The notes: generated by a model not told the origin, from the sequence alone. Numbered from the stretch's first letter, positions 32,598-48,806 are shown. The stretch: 64,000 bases of DNA from an uncultured delta proteobacterium (GCA_963832165.1 CAWHTE010000001.1:672001-736000); one strand, 5' to 3'. Program-made: numbers and translations.

Positions 32598-34865
32598 CTA
32601 TCCCCGAGCGTCGCGCTTTGCGAGCAGACCCGCCACGCGGTCGCGGACCGCCTCGGCCGTGATCGGCCGGCGCACGAAGGCGGTGAGGGCCTCGCGGCTC
32701 GTGGAGAGCGGCACGTCGTCCGGCGCGCACAGCGCGAGCAGTGGCAGCTCGGGCCGGTCCACGTGCAGCGCCTGGATCAGCGGCTGTCCGTCCGGCGCGG
32801 CGAATCCTGCGTCGATCACCGCGGCGTCGAGCGCTCCGGCGTGGGTGGCCCAGAGCTCGAGCAGCTGTGCCGGGCCAGCCGCCTCGATCACCTCGAACCC
32901 AGCCCCACGCAGGGTCTGCGCGATGGATCCGCGCTGCTCCGCATCCGGCTCTGCGACGAGCACGACCGCGGCGCGCGCGCGATGCACCGGGGGCTGCACG
33001 GGTGTCGCATCGACGGGCAGGAAGATCCGCATGCGCGTGCCGCGGCCCGGCTCGCTCTCGACGTCGATCGCGCCGCGGTGCCCCTGCACGAGGCCGAGCA
33101 CCGCGGAGAGCCCGAGGCCGTGTCCGTCCTGTTTCGTCGTGAAGAACGGCTCGAAGATGTGGGCGCGGGTTTCGGCATCCATCCCGGTGCCCGTGTCCAC
33201 GACCTCGAGTCGCGCATACCACCCGCCCGCGAGGTTCTCGCCGCCGAGCCAGCGTGCGAGGCGCTCGGCCTCGACGTGCTCGAGCGAGGTGCGCACCGTG
33301 ACGATCCCGGGACCGGCGCCGACCGCATCGGCGGCGTTCAAGACGAGGTTCATGAGCACCTGCTCGACCTGCACGACGTCGGCGTGGACCTGGAGCGGCT
33401 CGCGCGCGAGATCGAGCTGGAGCGCCACGCCGCCCGGCAGCGCCGTGGAGAGCAGATCCGCGAGCGCATGGGCCAGCTCCGAGAGCTCCACCGTGCGCAC
33501 CTCGGGCGACCGCCGACCCGCGTACGCGAGCAGCTGCTTCACGAGTCGCGCCGCGCTCTCGGTGGCTTCCTCGGCGTCGCTGAGCGCTTCGCCGCGATCG
33601 TCCGGCGTCGCGTCGCGCGATCTCGCATAACGGACGCTGGAGAGGATCACCGCGAGCAGGTTGTTGAAGTCGTGCGCGATCCCGCCCGCGAGCACACCGA
33701 GGCTCTCGAGCTTGCGGGCCTCCTGGAGCTGAAGCGAGAGGTGCTCCTGGTCGCGCCGCGACTCCTCGAGCTCCGTGACGTCGTGCACGATGCACTGGAA
33801 TGCGGGCGCGCCGCCGTAGCTGATCGCGGTTCCGACGCCCGCGAGGTGACGCTCGCGGCCGTCGGCGCCCTGCAGGCGCAGCGCGAACGTCCCGCCGCGC
33901 AGATTGCCGCGGCTCGAGCGAGCGACGGAATCGACCACGGCGCGCACGTCCGATTCGTTCAGCCACTCGAACAGGTCGGTGCCCCAGAGCGCGGCCGGGC
34001 TCGCGGAGCCGTGCAGCGCCGCGGCCGCCGCATTGGCGAACACGACCCGATTGTTCTGGACGACGAAGATGCCCATCGGCGCGTTCTCGACGAGCTCGCG
34101 GTAGCGGCGCTCGCTCTCGCGTACGCGTTGCTCGGCCTCGACGCGTGCGGTGACGTCGCGCGCGATGATCAGGAAGTTGCATCGGCCATCGCACTGCGCG
34201 AAGGCGCGCAGGCTTCCGTCGATCCAGCAATAGCTGCCGTCGGCGCGGCGGATCCGATACGTGGAGTGGCTCGACTCCTCGCGCTCTGACAGCACGCCCG
34301 AGAACATCAGGCGCACGCGCTCGAGATCGTCGGGATGCACGAACGAGGAGTCGAACCGCGGAGAGTCCTCGCCGAAGCCGAGCACCGCCTTCACCTGGTC
34401 GTTGGCATACAGGAGGTTCCAGTCGCTGTCGTACTCCAAGATCATGTCGTAGGCGTTCTCGGCGATCAGCTGGAAGCGCTCGCGGCTGTCGCGCAGGCGG
34501 TTCTCGAGCTCGCGCGCCTGGGACACGTCCCGGCTCACCACGAGCACGTGCCGATCGCCGTCTTCGGCGGGAAAGGGCGTGATCGTCGATTCGATCCAGC
34601 GCGTGCGGCCCTTGGTGTCGAGCACGCGGAACGACATGCGCTGCGCTTCCCCGGCGCCGAACGCGGCGGCGAAGTGCTGCACGACGGCGGCGCGATCGTC
34701 GGGGTGCACGTGGTCGATCGACGCGAGCACGTCGTCGCCGAGGCTCGCGTGGTTCGGGCTCACCCAGACGGTGCGGCCGCGCGAATCGAGCTCGGCGATC
34801 CGTTCGACGCTGCTGCTCGCGAGCGCGCGGAAGCGCCGCTCGTCGGGTGTGGGGTGCTCGGCCAT
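32598..34865 (-). CDS. Hybrid sensor histidine kinase (3 PAS + HisKA/HATPase + atypical receiver)
   Basis: VHPDD PAS motifs; AGGIAHDFNN, NLVLNAADA, DTGTGM, FEPFFTTK, GLGL. Confidence 0.92.
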   Translation of the reverse strand: MAEHPTPDERRFRALASSSVERIAELDSRGRTVWVSPNHASLGDDVLASIDHVHPDDRAAVVQHFAAAFGAGEAQRMSFRVLDTKGRTRWIESTITPFPAEDGDRHVLVVSRDVSQARELENRLRDSRERFQLIAENAYDMILEYDSDWNLLYANDQVKAVLGFGEDSPRFDSSFVHPDDLERVRLMFSGVLSEREESSHSTYRIRRADGSYCWIDGSLRAFAQCDGRCNFLIIARDVTARVEAEQRVRESERRYRELVENAPMGIFVVQNNRVVFANAAAAALHGSASPAALWGTDLFEWLNESDVRAVVDSVARSSRGNLRGGTFALRLQGADGRERHLAGVGTAISYGGAPAFQCIVHDVTELEESRRDQEHLSLQLQEARKLESLGVLAGGIAHDFNNLLAVILSSVRYARSRDATPDDRGEALSDAEEATESAARLVKQLLAYAGRRSPEVRTVELSELAHALADLLSTALPGGVALQLDLAREPLQVHADVVQVEQVLMNLVLNAADAVGAGPGIVTVRTSLEHVEAERLARWLGGENLAGGWYARLEVVDTGTGMDAETRAHIFEPFFTTKQDGHGLGLSAVLGLVQGHRGAIDVESEPGRGTRMRIFLPVDATPVQPPVHRARAAVVLVAEPDAEQRGSIAQTLRGAGFEVIEAAGPAQLLELWATHAGALDAAVIDAGFAAPDGQPLIQALHVDRPELPLLALCAPDDVPLSTSREALTAFVRRPITAEAVRDRVAGLLAKRDARG

Positions 34866-34961
34866 CGCTGTGCGGGTCCTCGAGATGGTTTCGACGCATT
34901 CGGCCGGCAACTTGACCGCGGAGGTCGCGAACGGCCGGCCTTTTCCGCTCATTCGCGTGCT

Positions 34962-34989
34962 TTGACTATCGCTGCGCCCCGCGGATACT
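34962..34989 (+). promoter_or_regulatory. Candidate sigma70 promoter for the bufferin cluster
   Basis: TTGACT-N16-GATACT, 65 nt before the precursor start. Confidence 0.4.
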
Positions 34990-35054
34990 CCGGAGCGGTC
35001 CGCGAAACGCCGGATCCCGCGTCGGGACCGGCAACCCCGAATGGAGGTCGTTCC

Positions 35055-35318
35055 GTGAGAAATCGAAGTGCACTCGTGGCGTCGGCGGCCGCGGCGTTGT
35101 TCCTGGCCGGCGTTGCCGGCGCAGCCCACGCGGAAGAGGGCGCGGCTCCGGCGAAGGTCAAGTGCGAAGGCGTGAACTCGTGCAAGGGCCACAGCGACTG
35201 CAAGACGGCAGGGAGCTCCTGCAAGGGTCAGAACAGCTGTGCGGGCAAGGGCTACCAGATGATGTCCGCAGCCGAGTGCGAGGCCGCCAAGGCCGCCAAG
35301 GCGGCTCAGAAGAAGTAG
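35055..35318 (+). CDS. bufA: Bufferin-type (BufA2-like) RiPP metallophore precursor
   Basis: GGAGG SD + GTG; signal peptide ending AHA; six Cys: CEGVNSCKGHSDCKTAGSSCKGQNSCAGKG...EC. Confidence 0.85.
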   Translation: MRNRSALVASAAAALFLAGVAGAAHAEEGAAPAKVKCEGVNSCKGHSDCKTAGSSCKGQNSCAGKGYQMMSAAECEAAKAAKAAQKK

Positions 35319-35324
35319 GTCTGT

Positions 35325-35366
35325 CGAGGGAAGAGGGGGTGGGTCGCTCCACCGCCTCTTCCCTCG
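35325..35366 (+). terminator. Strong stem-loop between precursor and MNIO genes (no U-tract)
   Basis: CGAGGGAAGAGG...CCTCTTCCCTCG 12-bp arms plus inner GGTGG/CCACC. Confidence 0.65.
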
Positions 35367-35409
35367 TGTCGCGAGGCCCGATCCGCGTGATCTCGACCGA
35401 AGCGCCGAC

Positions 35410-36321
35410 GTGAGCGCGAGCCGCGTTCCCTTCCTGGGTGTGGGCGTCGGTCTGCGCCCGAAGCACTACCCGGCGATCCTCGCAGCGCCGGATCCGGTCC
35501 GGCTCGGCGTCGACTTCTTCGAAGCGCTCTCCGAGAACTACATGGTGCCCGGGGGCCGTCCGCCGCGCGTGCTCGCGGAAGTGCGCGCGCACTTCCCCGT
35601 CGTGCTGCACGGCGTCTCGCTGAACGTGGGCTCGGCCGATCCGCTCGACGCGAACTATCTCGACGAGCTCGCAGAGCTCGCGCGCCGCTACGAGCCCGCA
35701 TGGCTCTCCGACCATCTGTGCTGGACCGGCGTGCGCGGGCACAACCTCCACGATCTCCTGCCGCTCCCGTACACGGAAGCCGCGCTGGCCTACGTGGCAG
35801 AGCGCGCGATGCGCGTCCAGGACCGGCTCGGGCGCCAGATCGCGCTCGAGAACGTGTCGTCGTATCTCGCCTATCAGGCCGATGCGATGCCGGAATGGGA
35901 GTTCGTCGCACGCGTCGCCGAGCGCGCCGACTGCGGGATCCTGCTCGACGTGAACAACGTGTTCGTGAGCGCCCACAATCACGGCTTCGACGCCGAGCGC
36001 TATCTCGCCGCAATCCCGCCCGAGCGAGTGTTCCAGATCCACCTGGCCGGGCACTCCGAGCAGGGCGCGATGAAGATCGACACCCACGATCACGCGGTGT
36101 GCGACGAGGTCTGGGCGCTGTTCGAGATGGCGGTGCGCCGGCTGGGACCCGTGTCGACGCTGATCGAGTGGGACGACCGGATCCCCGAGTTCGAGGTCCT
36201 GGTCGCCGAGGCGGCGCGCGCGAGAGCGATCCTCTCGACCGCGACGCGAGAGGGGAGAGGGGATGACGCGGGCGCTCGACTCGCTTCAACACCAGCTCTG
36301 GCAGCTGATCACCGCGCCTAG
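35410..36321 (+). CDS. bufB: DUF692 multinuclear non-heme iron oxidase (MNIO, BufB-like)
   Basis: GVGLRPKH, ENYM, HGVSLNVG, SDHLCW, LENVSSY, LLDVNN, HLAGH, IDTH, IEWD. Confidence 0.93.
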   Translation: MSASRVPFLGVGVGLRPKHYPAILAAPDPVRLGVDFFEALSENYMVPGGRPPRVLAEVRAHFPVVLHGVSLNVGSADPLDANYLDELAELARRYEPAWLSDHLCWTGVRGHNLHDLLPLPYTEAALAYVAERAMRVQDRLGRQIALENVSSYLAYQADAMPEWEFVARVAERADCGILLDVNNVFVSAHNHGFDAERYLAAIPPERVFQIHLAGHSEQGAMKIDTHDHAVCDEVWALFEMAVRRLGPVSTLIEWDDRIPEFEVLVAEAARARAILSTATREGRGDDAGARLASTPALAADHRA

Positions 36322-37108
36322 CGGGGCCGTGGCCGCGCTCGCAGAGCACGGCGATGCGGGCGGCCACGAGCTCGCCGCGCTCGTGCGCGGCGACCGCGGT
36401 CTCGCGCCGGCGGCGCGGCTCGAGATCTACGCGAACGCCTACTTCGCGCGCATCCACGATGCTCTGCGCGACGACTTCTCGGCGCTCGCGCGCGCGCTGG
36501 GTGCGGACGCATTCCACGATCTCGTGAAGACGTACCTCATGATGCACGCGCCGGAGCACGCGTCGCTGCGCCTCGCCGGGGCGCACCTTTCCGAGCATCT
36601 CAGGGCGCCGCCGTTCGCGGAGATCTTCGCGCGTCGCTGCCCCTACGCCGCCGATCTCGCGCGGCTCGAGTGGGCGATCAGCGAGGCGTTCTTCGCCGCG
36701 GACGCGCCCATCGTCGCGCGTGCCGAGCTCGCGGCGCTCGCGCCCGAGGCATGGGCCGATGTCCGCTTCGAGACGGCTCCGTCGCTGCGGCTCCTCGAGT
36801 GCGCGTGGCCGGTGCAGATCGCGCGCGAGCGCTGCGATGCGGAAGGCGGCGAAGCCACCTGGGACGAGGCCCCGGCGTTGCCCGCCGAGCCGACCTGTCT
36901 GCGCGTGTGGCGGCGCGACGAGCGGGTCCACTACCGGTCGATCCCGCGGCTCGAGCTCGAGGCGCTAGGCGGCGCGCGCGCGGGCGAGACATTCGCCGCG
37001 CTCTGCGATCGCGTGGCGTCGGCCGTGGGAGAAGTCGAGGCGGCATCCCGGGCTGCGGCGCTGCTCTCGTCGTGGAGCTCCGATGGACTGCTCGCGCGCC
37101 TGCGCTGA
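36263..37108 (+). CDS. bufC: DUF2063 (HvfC/BufC-like) MNIO partner protein
   Basis: RLEIYANAYFARI..AL..DF, DLARLEWA; position after DUF692. Confidence 0.85.
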   Translation: MTRALDSLQHQLWQLITAPSGAVAALAEHGDAGGHELAALVRGDRGLAPAARLEIYANAYFARIHDALRDDFSALARALGADAFHDLVKTYLMMHAPEHASLRLAGAHLSEHLRAPPFAEIFARRCPYAADLARLEWAISEAFFAADAPIVARAELAALAPEAWADVRFETAPSLRLLECAWPVQIARERCDAEGGEATWDEAPALPAEPTCLRVWRRDERVHYRSIPRLELEALGGARAGETFAALCDRVASAVGEVEAASRAAALLSSWSSDGLLARLR

Positions 37109-37124: not shown

Positions 37125-38975
37125 TCACAGCTGCGCGATGGCCTCGAACGAGAGCCGGCCAAATGTCTGGGTCGACGATCGCAGCAGGTTCTCGAGCACT
37201 CGGATCTTGACCTCGGGCGCGGAGTGCTCGAGCGAATCGAACGCGGAGCGCTCGAGCACCCAGCACACCGCGGGAGCATCCGCGCGCACGGAGGCGCTGC
37301 GCAGAGATCCCTCCACCATCGACGGCTCACCGAAACCCATGCCGGCCGAGAGCGTCGAGAGGCGCCGCTGACGGCCGTCCGGCATGTCGGCGAGGACGCT
37401 GAGCTCGCCGAGCACCAGCAGGAACAGCTCGTTGGCGACTTCTCCGCGCCGGACCACCATGTCGCGCGCGCGGTACGAGCGCCGCTCCATGAGCCCGCGC
37501 AGCAGCTCGATCTGCTCGAGGCTGAGGTTCTGCAGCATTTCGTGCTTGCCGAGCGGGATCTCGTCGCGCTTCTCGAGCGCGACGCCCGCGGTGCGCAGCG
37601 TGCCGTTCTCGCACCATTCGAGCGCGAGGTCGTACTCGTCGAAAACCGATATCTGCAGCTCCGGCTCGTGCGCGCGCGCTTCCTGGAGCAGACGCAAGAG
37701 GCGTGGGTGGCGCGCGAGCCCGACGAGCGCCATGCCGCGATTGCGCGCGGAGAGCGAGGTGAGCAGCTCCAGGAGCATTCGCGCAGCCGGCACATCGACG
37801 GCGGCCACGCGCGAGAAATCCAGCACCAGATGGCTGACGGCCGCGGCGCTCTCCGACGATCCTGCGGATCACGAACTCCATGCCCGCAAAGGTCAGATCG
37901 CCCTGCAGCTGATAGGTGACGATCTGGTCGCCGCGCTGCGGCGAGCATCTCGCGCTCTCCGTCGAGCCGCTTGCGCTTGGACGAGAAGGTCCGCGCCGTG
38001 AAGCGCGAGCGCACCGCCGAGATCGCGAGGTGGGGTGCGCGCAGGAAGTGCAGCTCGAGGTCCTCGGACATCGCTTCGCACACGGCCACTCCGCGCACGC
38101 TGTTCCCGCGCACGTCGAGCGGCGGCGAGAACACGCCGATCGCGAGCTGGCCCGGCATCACGGCGAGAATGCCTCCCGCGACGCCGCTCTTGGCCGGCAG
38201 GCCGACCCGGTAGACCCACTCGCCGGCATAGTCGTACATGCCGCACGTCGTCATGACGGAGAGGACCTCGTCCACGTTCTCGGTGCGGATCACGCGATCG
38301 CGGGTCACGGGGTTCACACCGCCCCTCGCCAGCGTCGCGCCGATGATCGCGAGATCGCGGCAGTTCACCTCGATCGAGCACTGTCGGAAGTAGAGATCGA
38401 GGTCGGGCTCGGGATCGCGCTCGATGATCGAGAAGTTCCGCAGCATGTGGCTGATCGCGCGATTGCGATGGCCCGTCTCGCGCTCGGACCGGTAGACCGC
38501 CTCGGACAGGCTGAGCTGCCGCCCCGCGTACAGCGAGAACAGCGCGAGGATGCGCGCCCAGCGGTCCTCGACCGAATCGCCCACCACGAGCGACGATGCC
38601 GCGATCGCCCCCGCGTTGATCATGGGATTCCGCGGGCGCCCAGAGCTGGACTCGAGGCTGATCTCGTTGAACGCGTCGCCGGTGGGCTCGACGCCGATGC
38701 GCCGGAGCACGGCGGGTTTGCCCTGGTCCTCGAGGGCGAGCCCGTAGACGAAGGGCTTGGAGATCGACTGGATCGTGAACGCCTGGCGCGTATCGCCGAC
38801 CTCGTAGACGTAGCCGTCCACGGTCGCCAGGCTGATCCCGAACCAGCGCGGGTCGGCACCGGCGAGCTCGGGGATGTAGGTGGCGACCGTCCCCGTCTTC
38901 GAGCGTCCGGAAGCGCTCGTACAGGGAGCGCAGGTAACGCGCGATCGGGGAGTGGTCCGGCGCCGTGATGGCCAT
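37125..38975 (-). CDS. glsA: Glutaminase A fused to STAS and cNMP-binding domains (three apparent +1 frameshifts)
   Basis: VATYIPEL, QSISKPF, NPMINAGA, GMYD, PAKSGVAGG; STAS YQLQGDLTF...VLDFSRV; cNMP FGEPSMVEGSLRSASV; frame breaks near 38892, 37940 and 37853. Confidence 0.88.
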
Positions 38976-39117
38976 GGTCCTACCTCACATGGACGGGTTC
39001 GAGCTCAACGGAGCAAACGGCGTGCCCGTCTTTCGAACGCGCAAGGCGATCTGCAGACCGTTCTTGCACCATCGCGCGGCAGTCGGCGCCCACGAAGCGT
39101 GCGGCTAGCATGCGACC

Positions 39118-41286
39118 ATGTCGCTGCTGTCGCGGCTGCGCGCCCCGGGTGCCGCCAGTGTCACGCTCGCGAGCGTCGCGCTGGTCTTCGGACTGCATTG
39201 GGTCAACGTTCCGCTGCTCGACCAGATCGAGCGCAACACCTACGACATGCGCTTCCAGTCGCGCGGGGTCGTCGCCCCGGCTCCGGAGGTGGTCCTCGCG
39301 GTCGTCGACGAGAAGAGCCTCGACGCGTTCGGGCGGTGGCCCTGGTCGCGCGCGCGCATGGCCGAGGTCGTGGACGCGCTCTCCGCAGCCGGCGCACGCG
39401 TGATCGCGTTCGACATCGGCTTCCTCGAGCCCGAGGGCGCGGGACCCGACGGCGCCCTCGCGCGCTCGATCGCGCGCTCGCCCGCGGACGTCGTGCTCGG
39501 GTACTTCTTCAACGATCCGACCGAGAAGGGGGCTCACGCGGCCGACCCGGCTGCGCTGGAGCGCGCGCTCGAGCCGATCTCGTTCACCGCGCTCACCGTC
39601 CGCTACCGCGGCAGCTCGCCCGACGCGATGCCGTTTCACCGCGGCGACGCGCCCGAAGCCAACCTGCCCGAGATCACAGCCGCTGCCGAGGGAGCCGGAT
39701 ATTTCAATATCCGGCCCGACAAGGACGGCGTGGTGCGGCGCACACCGCTGGTCATGGGCGTTGGAGTGGACGCCTACCCCTCGCTCGCGCTCGAAGCCGC
39801 GTGGTATGCGCTGGGGCGTCCGCCACTCGTTGTGGAGGTGGCGCAGAGCGGGAGCGAGAACCTGGTCACCGGGATCTCGCTCGGCGACCAGGTGATGCCG
39901 ACCGATGCGCGTGGCGAGGCCCTGCTCTCGTTCGCGGGGCCGGCCGGGACCATCCCGCACGTCTCGGTCGCCGACATCCTCGCGGGGACGGTCGCCGAAG
40001 ACAGGCTGCGTGATCGCGTCGTGATCGTCGGCGTGACGGCCACCGGAGTCTTCGATCTGCGCGCTACGCCGTTCTCCGAGGTCTACCCGGGTGCCGAGGT
40101 GCAGGCGACGGCGCTCGACAACATCCTGCGCAACCGATTCATCACGCGGCCGGGTTGGGCGAGCCTCGCCGATCAGGTCGCGATCGTGTTGCTGGGCGCG
40201 GCGACCGCACTCGCGGTCTCGCGTCTCGGCCCGGTGTCGGAGCTCCTCGCAGCGCTGGCGATCGCGGCAGCTTACGTCGGACTGGCGATCCGGCTGTTTT
40301 CCGCGAACGGACTCTGGCTCGGCCTGGTTCATCCCCTGCTCGCCGTCGGCGTCACCTACACCTCGCTCACCGTACGCGGCTATCTCGTCGAGCAGCGCGA
40401 GCGCCGCAAGGTCGCCAACGCCTTTGGTCAATACGTTTCCCCCGTCGTGATCGAGCAGATGCTGGCGAACCCGAGTCAGCTCCGGCTCGGAGGCGAGGAG
40501 CGCGTGCTCACTGTGCTCTTCTGCGACATGGCGGGCTTCACGACCATCGCCGAGCGGCTCACCCCGACGCAGACGATCGAGCTGCTCTCCGAATTCCACG
40601 CGCGCATGACGGAGCGGATCTACGCCTGCGAGGGGATGCTGAAGGAGTACGTGGGCGACGAGGTGATGGCGATCTTCGGCGCGCCGGTCGTGCAGCCCGA
40701 CCACGCGGTGCGCGCCTGTCGAGCCGCGCTCGCGATGCGCGACGCGCGCGCGCAGCTCTCGGCCGAATGGGCGCAGCGCGGTTATCCGCCGATCCGCTCG
40801 CGCACCGGCGTGAACTCGGGCGCGATGCTGGTCGGGAACATCGGCTCCCGCTATCGCTTCTCGTACGGCGTGGTCGGCGACGCCGTGAACCTGGGCTCGC
40901 GCATCGAGGGACTGAACAAGCTCTACCGCACCGAGATCCTGATCGGAGAGCAGACCGAGGTGATGCTCGGCGACGCATTCCGGCTGCGCGAGGTCGACGC
41001 GGTGCGGGTGCTCGGCAAGAAACTTCCCGTGCGAATTTTCGAGCTCCTCGGCGAGGCGGGCGAGACGCTCGATCCCCGGCGCGAGAAGCTCCTCGATCAC
41101 TACGCCACGGGCCTCGCCGCCTACCGCGAGCGGCGCTTCGACATCGGCCTCGCCGAATTCGAGGCGGCGCTCGCGCTCGTGCCCGACGACGGACCCAGTC
41201 AGACGCTGGCGGAACGCTGCCGAGTATTTCGGACAGCGCCGCCGGCGCAGGACTGGGACGGCGCCTACCAGGCGACCGAGAAATAG
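39118..41286 (+). CDS. CHASE2-TM class III nucleotide cyclase, predicted guanylyl cyclase
   Basis: CHASE2 (VDEKSL..GRWPWSR, DKDGVVRR, PGAEVQA); catalytic FCDMAGFT, KEYVGDE, YGVVGDAVNLGSRIE; C-terminal TPR-like helices. Confidence 0.92.
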   Translation: MSLLSRLRAPGAASVTLASVALVFGLHWVNVPLLDQIERNTYDMRFQSRGVVAPAPEVVLAVVDEKSLDAFGRWPWSRARMAEVVDALSAAGARVIAFDIGFLEPEGAGPDGALARSIARSPADVVLGYFFNDPTEKGAHAADPAALERALEPISFTALTVRYRGSSPDAMPFHRGDAPEANLPEITAAAEGAGYFNIRPDKDGVVRRTPLVMGVGVDAYPSLALEAAWYALGRPPLVVEVAQSGSENLVTGISLGDQVMPTDARGEALLSFAGPAGTIPHVSVADILAGTVAEDRLRDRVVIVGVTATGVFDLRATPFSEVYPGAEVQATALDNILRNRFITRPGWASLADQVAIVLLGAATALAVSRLGPVSELLAALAIAAAYVGLAIRLFSANGLWLGLVHPLLAVGVTYTSLTVRGYLVEQRERRKVANAFGQYVSPVVIEQMLANPSQLRLGGEERVLTVLFCDMAGFTTIAERLTPTQTIELLSEFHARMTERIYACEGMLKEYVGDEVMAIFGAPVVQPDHAVRACRAALAMRDARAQLSAEWAQRGYPPIRSRTGVNSGAMLVGNIGSRYRFSYGVVGDAVNLGSRIEGLNKLYRTEILIGEQTEVMLGDAFRLREVDAVRVLGKKLPVRIFELLGEAGETLDPRREKLLDHYATGLAAYRERRFDIGLAEFEAALALVPDDGPSQTLAERCRVFRTAPPAQDWDGAYQATEK

Positions 41287-41293
41287 CGCTCCG

Positions 41294-42094
41294 TTACAGG
41301 CAGGGCGGTCTGGGATCGGAGAGGCTCTTGCAGTCGCACATGGTGTAGAGCCGGCCGCCCACGATCCGGTTGGTGCACGACTCGTCCCCGTTGGAGAAGG
41401 CGCTGCCTTCCTTGAACCACGTGCCGTTTCCGATCGACTGGCCGTTGATCTCCACGTTCATGGACTCCGGCGGCAGACCGTTCGCGACCAGCTTGCAGCC
41501 AGGGCCCGTGACCGTCGCCGGGAGGCCCTTGCCCGTGAACGGGTCGGTCGGGATCGTCAGCGAGCAGTCTTTGAATTCGAGCGTCTCGGTCGTGGTGATC
41601 TGCGCGTGCGGATCGAAGACCTCGGTGCCCAGCGTGGCGATGCGACACTGCTCGACCACCTTGCCCTTCTTCACCACGATCGACCCATGGATCGGGGCAA
41701 GCGCGCCCACGACGACGAGATCGAACGGGCCGGTCTTCTGCTGATTCTGGTTGATCCGCGACGTCTGGTTGGCGCAGTCCCGCAAGGCAAGACCCGACAC
41801 GTTGTCGCCAGCGCACGGAGGGCTGTCGAAGTTGCTCGGCGGGATCACGATCACCGGTTCCCAGTCGACGGTGATCGCGACGTGATCGGGCGTCTCGCCG
41901 CGGTGCGGCGTGATGTTGTACGTCATGCCCGTGCATCGTTCGGCCGGGCAGGGAACCGCGTCGAACGGGGCGGTCGCGGTCACGGTCCATCCGCCGCCGC
42001 TCGTTCTGCACTGGAGGACGGGCTCCGATGCAGCGGCCGAGGCTGCCGCGAACAGTATCGCCGCGGAGATCACGCAGGTGAGTCGAGTGTTCAT
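41294..42094 (-). CDS. Secreted cysteine-rich hypothetical protein
   Basis: Signal peptide ending AAA; 12 Cys after it; GAGAGGGA SD; codirectional with the FecR-TPR gene. Confidence 0.7.
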   Translation of the reverse strand: MNTRLTCVISAAILFAAASAAASEPVLQCRTSGGGWTVTATAPFDAVPCPAERCTGMTYNITPHRGETPDHVAITVDWEPVIVIPPSNFDSPPCAGDNVSGLALRDCANQTSRINQNQQKTGPFDLVVVGALAPIHGSIVVKKGKVVEQCRIATLGTEVFDPHAQITTTETLEFKDCSLTIPTDPFTGKGLPATVTGPGCKLVANGLPPESMNVEINGQSIGNGTWFKEGSAFSNGDESCTNRIVGGRLYTMCDCKSLSDPRPPCL

Positions 42095-42136
42095 GTCTGT
42101 CCCTCTCTATACAACTTGGAGTGAAGCAGCCCCGCG

Positions 42137-45100
42137 CTACGGCAACGCCAGGGTGACCTTGCCATAGAAGAGCCTGCCCGGTCGCAGGTCCGGATTGTGG
42201 ATGTCGGTGGCCTGGTACGGCCCATCTTCGTCGAGGAAGTTGTTCACTCCGAACGCGACGAAACCGTAGCGCCGCGGCAGGCGGTACCGGATACCCGCGT
42301 CGTACATCCAGAAGTCGCGGTGGCCGTCTTCGAAGGCGAGCGTCGTATTGCGCAGGAACTCTCCATCCTGGTCCAGATACGTGGCGCCGAACGAGAGGCT
42401 CACGCCCGACGGATGGAACAGCTGGACGCCGAGCGGAACCCGGTGGGTGTCGACGTCGCTGAACCCATACGCGCCGGCCAGCAGGTCATCGAGCCGGAAC
42501 TGCTCGAACTGATACTCCGCGCGCAGCGCAATCCAGTCGTGAGGCGTGATGAAGAGGTAGGTGCGCGCGATCTTCTCGCGCGCGGGCTCGCGCGTCACCA
42601 CGATACCGCCCGCACCGACGATCTGGTTCGGGACCTGGAGATCGCGCCAGGAGCCCTCGACGCCCGCGAAGACGTGGCTTCCGAACTTCTGGTCGATCGC
42701 CGCGCCGTAGCGCCACGACGACGTGCCCGACGGATCGTCGTAGAACTGGTTGAAGCCGGCCACCTGCGTCGGCTCGAGCGTCTGCTGGTTCACCAGCGTG
42801 CGCTTGAGCGCGCGGAAGCCGGCCGCGCGGAACGTCGTTCCCGGCGAGAACGACGGGGTCCAGGTGAGGCCGCCCTTCGGGTTGGCCTGGTCGCGATGGC
42901 CGATGCCCTCTTCTTCGTGAAAGAAATCGCCGCTCACCCCGAGCGTCATCGACACGTTCGCGGGCAGCGCCGTGTACGTGTAGAGATAGGCGTTGTTGTG
43001 GTCGACGTTGGGCGCGCGCAGCGCCTGCGGGATGACCTGCGGATCATCCGGCACGCCGCCGGTGAACGTCAGCAGGGTGATCGTCTCGTCGACGTCGAGG
43101 CCGACCGTGCCCGCGCCGGCGACGGTCTGGACGCGGTCGACCCATCCGCCCGTGACCGAGGACAGGTCGTGGCGGTGGATCAGCTGCCCCTCACCGTTGT
43201 ATCCCGCCTCTTCCGTGTTGATGTCGCTCGAGAAGCCGAAGTCCGTGAAGACGGGATCAGTCGAGAAATCCTCGGAGTCGCCGCTGCGCTCCTCGTAGGC
43301 GAGCGAGAGCAGCGCGATCGTGTCGGCCGAGAACGCATGGCGCAGCCCGGTCCGGAAGCTCCCCGTCTCGGTGCGCTCGTCGAGGTCGCGGCTGAAATCG
43401 TCCTCGAGGAATTTCAGCGCGAGGTCGCCGTTCTCGAGGTGGCGGTAGCGGAACTCGCCCTGGACGCTCGTCTCCGGTGTCACCTGGAACTGGGCGAACG
43501 CGTTGGCGACGTTGTCCTTCTGTTCGTTGTTGGACCGGAAGCCATCGGTCCAGTACCCGCTGTAGCCGGCGGAGAACGAGAGCCGGTCGTGGATCGCCGA
43601 GACGATCCCCTCGCCGGCGTAGGTTTCGTCCTCGCCGAACAGGCCGTTGCCCTGCACCGCGACGCGGTTGCGCTCGAAGAGCGGATTGAACTCGGTGAAC
43701 GAGAGGTTCGAGGGACCCTGCGACGAGAGCAGGAACAGGCTGCCCTCGCCCTGGCGCGGCTGGATCGGCACCAGATTGTTCGGCTGGAGCATCTGCGCCT
43801 GGAACAGCTCGGAGACGCGCGCGATCTCGTGGCGCGGCTGGGAGGCGTAGGAGTCCGCGAGCAGGCGGTGGGCCGAGTGATTGCTGACGTCGGTCCCGAC
43901 GGATTTCCAACCCTCGACGAGCGCAAGGCTCTGGAAGCCGAGGTCTCCGTAGATCCGGCCGAGGCTCGCGCTGCGCGCGGCCTCGTCGGAGTCGAGCAGC
44001 AGGCGCGAGCGGTTCACGGCGCGGTTGTCGTTGCGCGCGATCGCCTCTTCCACGCTGTGCAGCGCCTGGACGGGCCGATTCGTGGTCTGCTCGGCGATCG
44101 CCTGGTAGAACCAGGGCGTCGGGTCGTTCGGATCGAGCTGCTTCGCGGTCTCGAATTCGCGCATGTCGAGACCGTCGCGCTTCTCCTCGTAGTAGGCCTT
44201 TCCGAGATAGCTGCGGATCGTCGCGTCGTTCGCGTCGAGGCTCGCGGCCACCTCGATCTCGCGCGCGCCTGCGGCGAGATCGCCGCTGCGGATCTTCGCG
44301 AGCCCGAGCCCGAGTCGCGGCATCGGGTCGGCCTGGTCGAGGTCGATCGCGCGTTCGAAAGCCATCCGCGCGGCGTCCGTCTCGACCCGGGTCAGATGCG
44401 CGAAGCCGAGCACCGTCTGGGTGCGCGAGAGCTTCGAGTCGAGCGACGCGGCGCGCTCCGCGGCGGCGAGCGCCCCGCGCAGATCGCCGAACGAGGCGCG
44501 CAGCTCGGCGACGCGCGCCCATGCGAGCGCGTTGTCCTTCTCGAGCTTCACCGCCCGCTCGGCGCTCGCGCGCGCGCCCTCGAGATCGAAGCGCGCCTGC
44601 TGTACGTAGGACGAGGCGATCTGCGCCGCTGCCGACTTCGGATCGGCGGCGACCGCGCGGTCGGCTGCGGTCTGCGCGTCCTCGCTGCGATTCTGCGCGA
44701 CGGCGATCACCGCCTGGAGCGACAGCGCATCGGGATCGTTCGGCGCGAGCTCGAGCGCTCGCGTGAGATCGGCGTTGGCCTCGTCGATGCTGCCCACCGC
44801 GAGGCGCTGCGAGGCGCGCTGCGCGAGCGCACGCGCGCTCCCATCCTCTGCTGCGGCCGCGCCCGGCGCGAGCACCGGCGGGTAGTAGAGCGCCCACTGC
44901 ACCGCGTCGCGCGGGCGCGCGACCAGCCGCGGCGCGGGCGCTTTGCCTGCCTCGGCGATCGCCGACGCGCCGGCTGCGAGCATGAGCTCGCCCGCCGCGT
45001 TCGCCGTCTGCACGCTGCCCTCGAAGACGGTGACTTCGCTGCGTCCCTCTTCGACTGCGACGAAGAACTCGGTGCCGCGCACGCCGGCCACCGCGTAGGG

Positions 45101-45502
45101 CGTGTTGACTTCGAGATTGCGTTCGCCGCGTCGGCTCAGGAAGTGGGCGGCGCCGCGCGAGAGATCGACCAGGTACTTGTCGTCCTCGGCGCCGGAGAGC
45201 GTCATCTCGGTGCGCGCGCGCAGGCGCAGCACCGACTGATCGAAGAGAGACAGGTCTGCCCGGCTGCGATCGCCCGCGCGCACCGTGTCGCCCGCGCAGA
45301 ATGCGCGATCGCGCTCGACGGGCTGCCAGTCGCTCGCGCCGGCGGGCCGCACCTCGATGACGCCCTGCACCGAGACGGCGCGCGCGACCGGCGGATCGCA
45401 GGTCGCGGACGACGCGCGCTCCCCGGCGCACACGACGCAGGCGATCGTGAGCGCGGAGGTCAGGGTAGGGATGTAGTAGTTGAGCCTGAAGGCCAACGGC
45501 AT
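42137..45502 (-). CDS. FecR + TPR + outer-membrane beta-barrel protein (NsrA-like)
   Basis: FecR (GDTVRAG, VNTPYAVAGVRGTEF, VFEGSV), AVQWALYYPP, many TPRs (LDPNDPTPW), C-terminal amphipathic beta-strand region. Confidence 0.8.
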   Translation of the reverse strand: MPLAFRLNYYIPTLTSALTIACVVCAGERASSATCDPPVARAVSVQGVIEVRPAGASDWQPVERDRAFCAGDTVRAGDRSRADLSLFDQSVLRLRARTEMTLSGAEDDKYLVDLSRGAAHFLSRRGERNLEVNTPYAVAGVRGTEFFVAVEEGRSEVTVFEGSVQTANAAGELMLAAGASAIAEAGKAPAPRLVARPRDAVQWALYYPPVLAPGAAAAEDGSARALAQRASQRLAVGSIDEANADLTRALELAPNDPDALSLQAVIAVAQNRSEDAQTAADRAVAADPKSAAAQIASSYVQQARFDLEGARASAERAVKLEKDNALAWARVAELRASFGDLRGALAAAERAASLDSKLSRTQTVLGFAHLTRVETDAARMAFERAIDLDQADPMPRLGLGLAKIRSGDLAAGAREIEVAASLDANDATIRSYLGKAYYEEKRDGLDMREFETAKQLDPNDPTPWFYQAIAEQTTNRPVQALHSVEEAIARNDNRAVNRSRLLLDSDEAARSASLGRIYGDLGFQSLALVEGWKSVGTDVSNHSAHRLLADSYASQPRHEIARVSELFQAQMLQPNNLVPIQPRQGEGSLFLLSSQGPSNLSFTEFNPLFERNRVAVQGNGLFGEDETYAGEGIVSAIHDRLSFSAGYSGYWTDGFRSNNEQKDNVANAFAQFQVTPETSVQGEFRYRHLENGDLALKFLEDDFSRDLDERTETGSFRTGLRHAFSADTIALLSLAYEERSGDSEDFSTDPVFTDFGFSSDINTEEAGYNGEGQLIHRHDLSSVTGGWVDRVQTVAGAGTVGLDVDETITLLTFTGGVPDDPQVIPQALRAPNVDHNNAYLYTYTALPANVSMTLGVSGDFFHEEEGIGHRDQANPKGGLTWTPSFSPGTTFRAAGFRALKRTLVNQQTLEPTQVAGFNQFYDDPSGTSSWRYGAAIDQKFGSHVFAGVEGSWRDLQVPNQIVGAGGIVVTREPAREKIARTYLFITPHDWIALRAEYQFEQFRLDDLLAGAYGFSDVDTHRVPLGVQLFHPSGVSLSFGATYLDQDGEFLRNTTLAFEDGHRDFWMYDAGIRYRLPRRYGFVAFGVNNFLDEDGPYQATDIHNPDLRPGRLFYGKVTLALP

Positions 45503-47214: not shown

Positions 47215-47438
47215 GGGGGCCGCTCCACCCTACCACGGCGCGTCGCTCGGGCAACGCGGTAGCAATCGGGCGGCAACTCACCGGCAGGCGATGCGCGAGA
47301 CGTGCGCGCCGTACCTCAAGCCGATCTGCAACGGCTCCGATAGCACTATCTGGAGCAACCCGTGCGAATGTCGCCCCCCTTCCGTTCGCATCTCCGACCG
47401 TGCGTGCTGCGCGCGTTTGCGAAGCCCAGGTGCGATCG

Positions 47439-48806
47439 ATGACGGCGCGCATTCTCGTCGTCGATGATTCGACCGCGAACCTGAAGCTGCTTCGCGCGAT
47501 GCTCGCGTCGGAATACATGGAAGTGATCATCGCGCGCGACGGACCCGAGGCGCTCGTGAAGCTCGCCGAGTGCAACCCCGACGTCGCTCTGCTCGACGTG
47601 ATGATGCCGGGCATGGACGGCTTCGAGGTGTGCCGCCGGATCAAGTCGGCGCCGAGCACGTCCCCGGTGCCGGTCGTGATGCTCACGACGCTCGACCAGC
47701 CCGAGGATCGCTTCGCAGCGCTCGAGGCCGGTGCGGACGACTTCATGACCAAGCCGCTGAATCGGCCCGCGCTCATCGCGCTCGTGCGCAACCTGGTCCG
47801 CCACAAGGCGATGATCGACGTGCTGCGCATGCGCGAGCGGAGCGGGGGCGGCGGCGCACGCGCCGGCGAGCCGACCATGATGGGTGTATCGATCGACCCG
47901 GGTCGCGTGCTCCTGATCGGAGACCAGCGCGGCACCTCCGACGCGATCCGGCTCGCGCTGCTTCCGCGGCACCGCGTGCACGTCGAGAAGGACTCCGAGG
48001 ACGCGCTGCTGCTGGTCCGGCGCGCCGAGTTCGATCTGCTCGCGGTCGATCTGTCGCTGGCCGGTGCTGACGCTCTGCGCGTGTGCGCGCGTTTGCGCGC
48101 GCTCGCGGAGTCGCGGTACACGCCCGTGCTCGCGATCGCGAACCACGACGCCGAAGCGTCGCTGCGCGCGCTCGAGCTCGGCGTGAACGGGTGCGTCGCG
48201 CAGCCGCTCCACCCGGGCGAGCTGCTCGCGCGCGTGGACTCGCAGCTGCGGCGCAAGAGATACTGGGACGCGCTGCGCGACGGCGCTCGCAAGCCGCTCG
48301 AGTGGGCCGGCGTGGATCCGCTCACGCGGATGCACGATCGCCGCTACCTGGAGCGCTATCTCGGCGCGCTCGTCTCGCAGAACGTCGAGCGCGGCCGGCC
48401 CGTGTCGCTCCTGTTCATGGACGTCGACCACCTCGATGCGGTCAACGACACCTACGATCACGAGGTCGGCGACGAGGTCCTGCGCGAGGTCGCGCGCCGC
48501 ATCTCGTCGAGCCTGCGCGGGCTGGATCTGTCGTGCCGATTCGGCGGCGAGGAGTTCGTGGCGGCGTTCTCGGGGGTCGACGTCGCGACCGCGCGGCGGA
48601 TCGGCGAGCGGCTCCGAGAAAGCGTCGCCGGTCGACCGTTTCCGATCGCCACCGAGGACGGCCCGCTCCACGTCACGATCTCGGTCGGGTCGGCGACGAC
48701 GTCGAGCCGCGAGGACACCGCCGACGCACTGCTCGATCGCGCAGATCTGGCGCTGTACCGGGCCAAGAAGGACGGCTGCAACCGCGTCGTCGCCTGCGAC
48801 GCCTGA
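47439..48806 (+). CDS. pleD: PleD-like REC-REC-GGDEF diguanylate cyclase
   Basis: MTARILVVDD, LLDVMMPGMDG, RGLDLSCRFGGEEF. Confidence 0.85.
   Translation: MTARILVVDDSTANLKLLRAMLASEYMEVIIARDGPEALVKLAECNPDVALLDVMMPGMDGFEVCRRIKSAPSTSPVPVVMLTTLDQPEDRFAALEAGADDFMTKPLNRPALIALVRNLVRHKAMIDVLRMRERSGGGGARAGEPTMMGVSIDPGRVLLIGDQRGTSDAIRLALLPRHRVHVEKDSEDALLLVRRAEFDLLAVDLSLAGADALRVCARLRALAESRYTPVLAIANHDAEASLRALELGVNGCVAQPLHPGELLARVDSQLRRKRYWDALRDGARKPLEWAGVDPLTRMHDRRYLERYLGALVSQNVERGRPVSLLFMDVDHLDAVNDTYDHEVGDEVLREVARRISSSLRGLDLSCRFGGEEFVAAFSGVDVATARRIGERLRESVAGRPFPIATEDGPLHVTISVGSATTSSREDTADALLDRADLALYRAKKDGCNRVVACDA

Follow-up and report, generated by a model that had tools for sequence, protein, structure and literature searches.

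A glutaminase carrying its own cyclic-nucleotide-binding (cNMP) domain was found beside a CHASE2 class III cyclase in the window, the whole stretch of 64,000 nucleotides of DNA that was analysed. The comparisons reported here point, with a probability of roughly 0.55, to the fused glutaminase reading, directly and allosterically, the messenger of the adjacent cyclase. The predicted product of this cyclase is cGMP, and an envelope cue would switch it via an NsrA-like protein. The best supported element is the general form of this reading, in which a cyclic nucleotide (cAMP or cGMP, according to the lineage) would bind and control the glutaminase.

The full cGMP-specific chain from an envelope ligand to the glutaminase is put forward tentatively. 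The barrel protein would be engaged by a ligand from outside the cell, which may be the secreted Cys-rich Ig-like protein or cargo captured by it, and its periplasmic FecR/TPR part would signal to CHASE2. The cyclase would then make cGMP, which would bind the C-terminal domain of the glutaminase and, via the STAS spacer, most likely relieve inhibition; glutamine would thereby be converted to glutamate and ammonia without new transcription. The ligand-to-barrel and FecR/TPR-to-CHASE2 steps are drawn by analogy with Sinorhizobium. The second of these is worded with caution because the FecR-domain protein SMc02177, a Clr target of S. meliloti, was not needed for signal perception (PMC5498481).

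Organization of the Four-Gene Block

The four adjacent genes and the divergent gap reported in the preliminary description were confirmed by coordinates and Pfam domains (Table 1). The cyclase gene and the gene of the Cys-rich protein are convergent, with 7 bp separating their stops, and glsA is divergent; therefore, the block comprises three transcription units, a point that counts against the proposed reading. The divergent gap was without a sigma-70-like consensus, and promoter and terminator scans stayed at chance level.

Table 1. Features of the four-gene block, in coordinates of the window.
Feature	Position	Strand	Basis or remark
glsA, glutaminase-STAS-cNMP fusion, ~615 aa	37125..38975	-	ATG 38975, TGA 37125; Pfam
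Divergent intergenic region, 142 bp	38976..39117		Between the starts of glsA and the cyclase gene
CHASE2-transmembrane-class III cyclase, 722 aa	39118..41286	+	Pfam and specificity residues
Predicted secreted Cys-rich protein, 266 aa, 13 Cys	41294..42094	-	No family; directly behind the barrel gene
FecR-TPR-predicted beta-barrel protein, 1121 aa, predicted signal peptide	42137..45502	-	Pfam; NsrA-like

Other genes lie close to the block. A bufferin-type RiPP cluster (35158-37108), composed of a small Cys-containing precursor, an MNIO BufB above the NCBIfam cut-off and a DUF2063 partner, converges on glsA with 16 bp separating the stops; it is not kept beside glsA in the metagenome contig L118. 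A PAS hybrid histidine kinase (32598-35192) and a PleD-like REC-REC-GGDEF protein (47400-48806) are both encoded less than 5 kb from the four genes.

The Glutaminase Fusion

The product of glsA, the sole glutaminase match in this genome (G000), gave clear Pfam matches to Glutaminase (E 4e-109; 364.7 bits for PF04960, against a cut-off of 27) and cNMP_binding (E 9e-17), and its intact ortholog in L118 scored 365.4 for TIGR03814, against a cut-off of 255.4. The STAS domain between them matched weakly in the window protein (E 5e-5, below the cut-off) and above the cut-off in the ortholog (E 1e-6). All seven catalytic motifs tested were present in the glutaminase core, among them QSISK, NAGA, SE..T..N, Y...CS, GMYD and KSGV, so that the Ser-x-x-Lys of the active site is accounted for, as are the conserved motifs with Asn, Glu and Tyr. 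The cNMP domain carries a phosphate-binding cassette, FGE...RSA, and the cassette FGE..R[ST]A was kept in 103 of 108 glutaminase fusions. Bradyrhizobium glutaminases annotated with STAS and cNMP domains exist among database entries; no full-length glutaminase-STAS-cNMP fusion was found in plasmid records.

The CHASE2 Cyclase and Its Predicted Product

The cyclase was matched by CHASE2 (E 1e-62) and Guanylate_cyc (E 2e-20), and its metal and transition-state residues are in place (D470, D514, N591, R595). At the specificity positions it has E510 and G584, the guanylate-type pair (E/G), which was also found throughout most of its closest proteins (113/120, the window cyclase counted in). When its catalytic domain was compared with the PDB, Synechocystis Cya2 and the E488K chimera of Cya2 ranked highest, and E510 aligns with Glu488 of Cya2, whose change to Lys switches the substrate; PMC5995499 describes Cya2 as a CHASE2 guanylate cyclase that E488K turns to ATP. 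The guanylate-type residues noted in the preliminary description were thus upheld by alignment of both positions with Cya2, and the window cyclase is predicted to make cGMP.

In the cyclase tree, the E/G enzymes formed a clade of 13 rows (support 100/100) among K/T CHASE2 cyclases, and of the 10 cyclase domains in G000 only that of the window cyclase was E/G. A search of the phylum around the genome G203 gave 34 matches; 20 regions were examined, of which 19 had K/T cyclases without glsA and one had an E/G cyclase. Giant frames (3,400-4,500 aa) that carry a cyclase domain at the N-terminus were also observed in G000 (C2:84693-126507 and C10:2-12304); the one that was scanned contained a zinc ribbon, the cyclase, an AAA ATPase and many SnoaL-like repeats.

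Conservation of the glsA-Cyclase Neighborhood

A search by the cyclase recovered the same block order in the metagenome contigs L117, L118 and L120, at 65-91% identity. The order cyclase, Cys-rich protein and barrel was found in three more (L119, L121, L125), which begin inside the cyclase. The gene behind glsA in L118 differs from that in the window.

Additionally, the surroundings of glsA were counted in the best 80 of at least 576 confirmed glsA stretches in genome contigs. A class III cyclase lay within about 10 kb of glsA in 14/80 loci against 1.83 expected, and a CHASE2 domain in 11/80 against 0.55, figures that are overstated by the statistics, which treat kin as independent. HATPase, the histidine-kinase control, was not enriched (6 observed against at least 8.6 expected). 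Matches were counted per genome; our own profiles recovered 10/2/58/9 ORFs in G000, and Pfam 9/2/60/9.

Furthermore, a cyclase neighbour was observed for fused glutaminases (17/103 loci) and never for short ones (0/60), counts that are likewise inflated by kinship. The same held within the order of the genome G269, with 2/19 fused against 0/39 short loci. This count adds loci from the latter order (20 long-match and 40 shorter-match, 60 of 93 matches) and short glutaminases from the order of the window; four duplicates, three loci found via the cyclase, six truncated or frameshifted loci and those with a glutaminase domain below 220 aa were excluded. Hence, the adjacency of glsA and cyclases, which the preliminary description had allowed might be chance, is not chance and recurs, an outcome in favour of the proposed circuit, for which a lack of conserved synteny had been named there as refuting.

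The pairings do not go back to one event. The neighbour cyclases are polyphyletic: the 24 rows of the cyclase tree required 14 changes of neighbour label, 10 of them forced by starred branches, and a single origin appeared in 0% of 200 bootstrap trees. A quick glutaminase tree of 24 labelled rows gave 20 changes, 12 of them forced. Several unrelated gene orders were observed: glsA, barrel, Cys-rich protein and E/G cyclase in L054, and glsA, barrel and K/T cyclase in L094, both operon-like; glsA, CHAT-TPR and CHASE2 cyclase in L096 and L099, and divergently in L102; and glsA abutting GAF-, HAMP- or double-domain cyclases in L064, L090, L037 and L055. In four genomes (G209, G210, G256, G258), the sole CHASE2 match adjoins glsA. 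Metallo-beta-lactamase-fold genes were seen divergent beside related modules (L054:8531-9295, L032:12725-14056); they weakly resemble cyclic-nucleotide phosphodiesterases, below the cut-off, and none occurs in the block of the window.

The Nature of the Messenger

The specificity residues of the 14 neighbour cyclases were mixed: seven K/T, one E/G, two Q/A, two K/H, one R/R and one R/G. A co-occurrence of the fusion with E/G-type cyclases in particular, as suggested in the preliminary description, was therefore seen for the link to cyclases and not for their type (1/14). In the same way, the cGMP signal proposed there agrees with the residues of the window cyclase and does not extend to neighbours elsewhere, 7/14 of which are of the adenylate-type K/T; moreover, the cNMP pockets of E/G-linked and K/T-linked glutaminases, compared by eye, showed no difference and no co-variation. 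The term cGMP applies to this clade only.

Within the E/G clade, eight rows include flanking DNA, and glsA was found beside the cyclase in six of them, representing three gene orders and three glutaminase lineages; of the other two, L283 has a PilZ-cNMP-kinase and L210 neither. A cNMP reader thus tends to accompany the E/G cyclases, and in most cases it is this glutaminase. In L283 (6501-10858; G719:C3) the E/G CHASE2 cyclase is encoded directly behind the gene of the PilZ-cNMP-Ser/Thr kinase, a candidate bacterial cGMP-dependent kinase.

Judged by gene content and context, a role of the glutaminase as a cyclic-nucleotide effector is well supported. It need not be the sole cyclic-nucleotide target in G000, because this genome, with its 9-10 cyclases, has eight other cNMP-domain matches: two with a CRP helix-turn-helix, on other contigs, and six more elsewhere. 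Within the block, the linked cNMP reader is an enzyme, as noted in the preliminary description.

These proteins also bear on the alternative that survives best, which we nevertheless regard as improbable: the glutaminase would read a cell-wide pool, the main output would be transcriptional via the unlinked CRP-type proteins, as for Clr, and the linkage would reflect shared regulation. Such a pool would agree with the mixed specificity of the neighbours and with most fused glsA genes being without a cyclase neighbour (86/103 in the available DNA, where many contigs are short). It is harder to reconcile with the strong local enrichment, the operon-like orders, the genomes whose only CHASE2 gene adjoins glsA, and the window cyclase being the one E/G enzyme of G000.

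A stronger version of direct reading, in which the cGMP circuit would be self-contained and insulated from cAMP, with an outer-membrane receptor that would sense the secreted Cys-rich protein and activate a dedicated guanylate cyclase whose cGMP would switch the glutaminase on, and the fusions would be unrecognised messenger-gated nitrogen enzymes repeatedly paired with unrelated cyclases, is offered as a possibility whose odds are well short of even.

The STAS Domain and the Direction of Signalling

In anti-sigma-antagonist STAS domains, the phospho-acceptor Ser lies in a D-S-S-G-like motif. At the corresponding place the window STAS reads D-V-P-A, with Pro at the putative phospho-site and no phospho-acceptor Ser, and Ser is kept in about half of the fusions (53/108).

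A clade of short glutaminases near the fusions (L030:4325-9996, L031:4634-10586, L231, L232, L235, L236) was found beside an RsbW-like kinase and a PP2C (SpoIIE); L030 and L031 additionally encode FecR, OmpA, a CHASE2-PP2C and a STAS protein that stands free. The same enzyme may thus have a second route of control, by partner switching.

Signalling could also run in reverse or by contact, the fusion serving as a glutamine sensor or STAS partner that tunes the cyclase and the cNMP domain providing feedback. This is given a low probability, below that of the cell-wide pool: the partner-switching neighbours of the short clade and the fusions that keep Ser are in its favour, whereas the glutaminase catalytic motifs are fully kept, the window STAS has Pro at the site, and the partner cyclases are mutually unrelated, which a diffusible messenger fits better than contact.

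Distribution Among Relatives

Several absences among relatives count against the proposed reading. None of the three partners was found in the 20-kb regions around glsA of G018 and G014, two genomes of the same family whose glsA is 80% identical. Fifteen further genomes of the order offered 16 close matches to glsA; in the available DNA around them, where many contigs are short, no CHASE2 or FecR was found nearby, and two of the places had a cyclase-AAA protein. The barrel protein is patchily distributed, with matches in 2/192 other genomes of the order (best three candidates scored per genome), and a search of six genomes of the same genus did not recover the four-gene block.

The last two observations would suit an adjacency that arose by chance or through hitchhiking on signalling islands that are mobile. 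This explanation is thought quite unlikely, since the HATPase control was not enriched beside glsA, short glutaminases had no cyclase neighbour and the pairings arose many times independently.

Reading Frame of glsA

As assembled, glsA falls into four frame pieces, judged by translation and third-position GC, with three single extra bases near 38895, 37938 and 37847. Minus these bases, its span gives 615 codons, and the intact ortholog in L118 has 614 aa. The base at 37847 is absent from contig X1, which has no other difference over 188 bases, and from X5; that at 37938 is absent from X6, and that at 38895 from X1. These short contigs from three public runs were matched at 94% likeness (one contig per run, depth 2-3) and come from other samples, so that they attest an intact allele in near-identical DNA and not the error itself. 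Because near-identical contigs each lack exactly the base in question, the three breaks are probably assembly errors, a favourable outcome for the proposed circuit, against which real frameshifts in glsA had been named beforehand as counting.

A true pseudogene in this genome, with the module signalling elsewhere, is accordingly very improbable even though the three frameshifts all fall in glsA and none in its three neighbours, given the intact alleles and motifs, an assembly (5.5 Mb in 11 contigs) that suggests long reads, and frame switches at about four other places of the genome, a count that is ambiguous, possibly located in the queries, and serves as a hint alone.

The Envelope Genes

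The FecR-TPR protein matched FecR (E 1e-17) and TPRs in Pfam. The window protein itself had no Pfam barrel match; its close homologs match PF00593, the TonB-type barrel family, and a crude scan of its C-terminal half gave 12 amphipathic strand-like segments. A single-sequence structure model reached a mean pLDDT of 36. On an Ensifer megaplasmid, the profile of this family matched a frame of 1,232 aa (E 2.5e-48, and 9e-6 for the barrel part) that immediately precedes the gene of a CHASE2 cyclase with Lys at the specificity site. This frame, unannotated in its record, is inferred to be the NsrA ortholog. The NsrA-like architecture noticed in the preliminary description was thereby substantiated, the window protein having a rhizobial homolog whose gene is arranged as in nsrA-cyaK.

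The Cys-rich protein has no Pfam family; it has a hydrophobic N-terminus and 29 homologs at E 0.001. A generic Ig-like beta-sandwich was predicted for residues 25-159 (best Z 7.2 in a wide structure search), with no usable match in the ESM Atlas and none in Foldseek at E 0.001. In L118, L119, L121, L125, L033, L054 and L124, the gene after that of the barrel protein also encodes a secreted protein rich in Cys, whether or not it is related to that of the window. Two tandem copies with 27-29% identity were observed behind the barrel gene in L033 (934-3031; G053:C353), a hint that these proteins may be variable cargo or ligands.

Discussion

If direct reading is true, a core nitrogen enzyme would be gated by a cyclic nucleotide and wired to an envelope sensor, which would tie surface cues to the supply of glutamate and ammonia without transcription and add a rare bacterial cGMP effector. 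The known bacterial receptors of cAMP and cGMP are mostly CRP-family transcription factors (PMC10127613). In a literature search confined largely to open-access papers, no paper joining a glutaminase and a cyclic-nucleotide-binding domain was found. The module of CHASE2 cyclase, FecR and TPR is already known (PMC9239204, PMC13001267), and a CHASE2 guanylate cyclase is likewise already known. The reading by the glutaminase is cheap to probe, since the enzyme is soluble, its assay is standard and just two nucleotides are needed, and the K/T-linked and E/G-linked orthologs provide a natural pair for differences between cAMP and cGMP readers.

Comparison With Known Systems

The closest solved glutaminases are the salt-tolerant enzyme of Micrococcus luteus (PDB 3AGD) and YbaS of E. 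coli (1U60), with which the catalytic motifs align through the ortholog in L118; no solved or described glutaminase bearing a cNMP domain was found. For the cNMP part, the top PDB matches are regulatory domains of PKA/PKG. An enzyme fused to a cNMP domain has a parallel in the mycobacterial acetyltransferase Pat, which is under allosteric control by cAMP. The cNMP part matches the corresponding model NF058543 weakly, with a score far below the family cut-off, and Pat differs in its catalytic domain and domain order.

Synechocystis Cya2 (PDB 2W01) shares with the window cyclase the CHASE2-transmembrane-cyclase layout and Glu and Gly at both specificity positions. The similarity is at domain level only (E 6e-30), and the canonical Asp-Ala and Ser, kept in the window cyclase, are replaced in Cya2 by Ala-Gln and Tyr; the E/G clade of the window sits among K/T CHASE2 cyclases in a tree without Cya2. 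The CHASE2 cyclase clusters of Campylobacterota include a phosphodiesterase, whereas the block of the window has none, and the paper on those clusters makes no mention of glutaminase (PMC9239204).

The nearest likeness is to the NsrA-CyaK/CyaD1/CyaD2-Clr system of S. meliloti, in which a CHASE2 cyclase adjoins an outer-membrane barrel protein of about 1,100-1,200 aa (PMC7529298, PMC13001267) whose barrel comprises residues 600-1200 (S7 legend, PMC7529298). In the window, too, a large FecR-TPR protein with a predicted barrel is encoded beside a CHASE2 cyclase. Nevertheless, in the rhizobial systems cAMP carries the signal from the cyclases to a transcription factor, and the Ensifer cyclase has Lys, whereas the window has an E/G cyclase, an added Cys-rich secreted protein and an enzyme as the linked cNMP reader, with no CRP gene in its block and the CRP-HTH genes on other contigs. 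Hence, the module of the window would work like the NsrA-CyaK cascade and is not a member of it, because it has another type of cyclase and another linked output.
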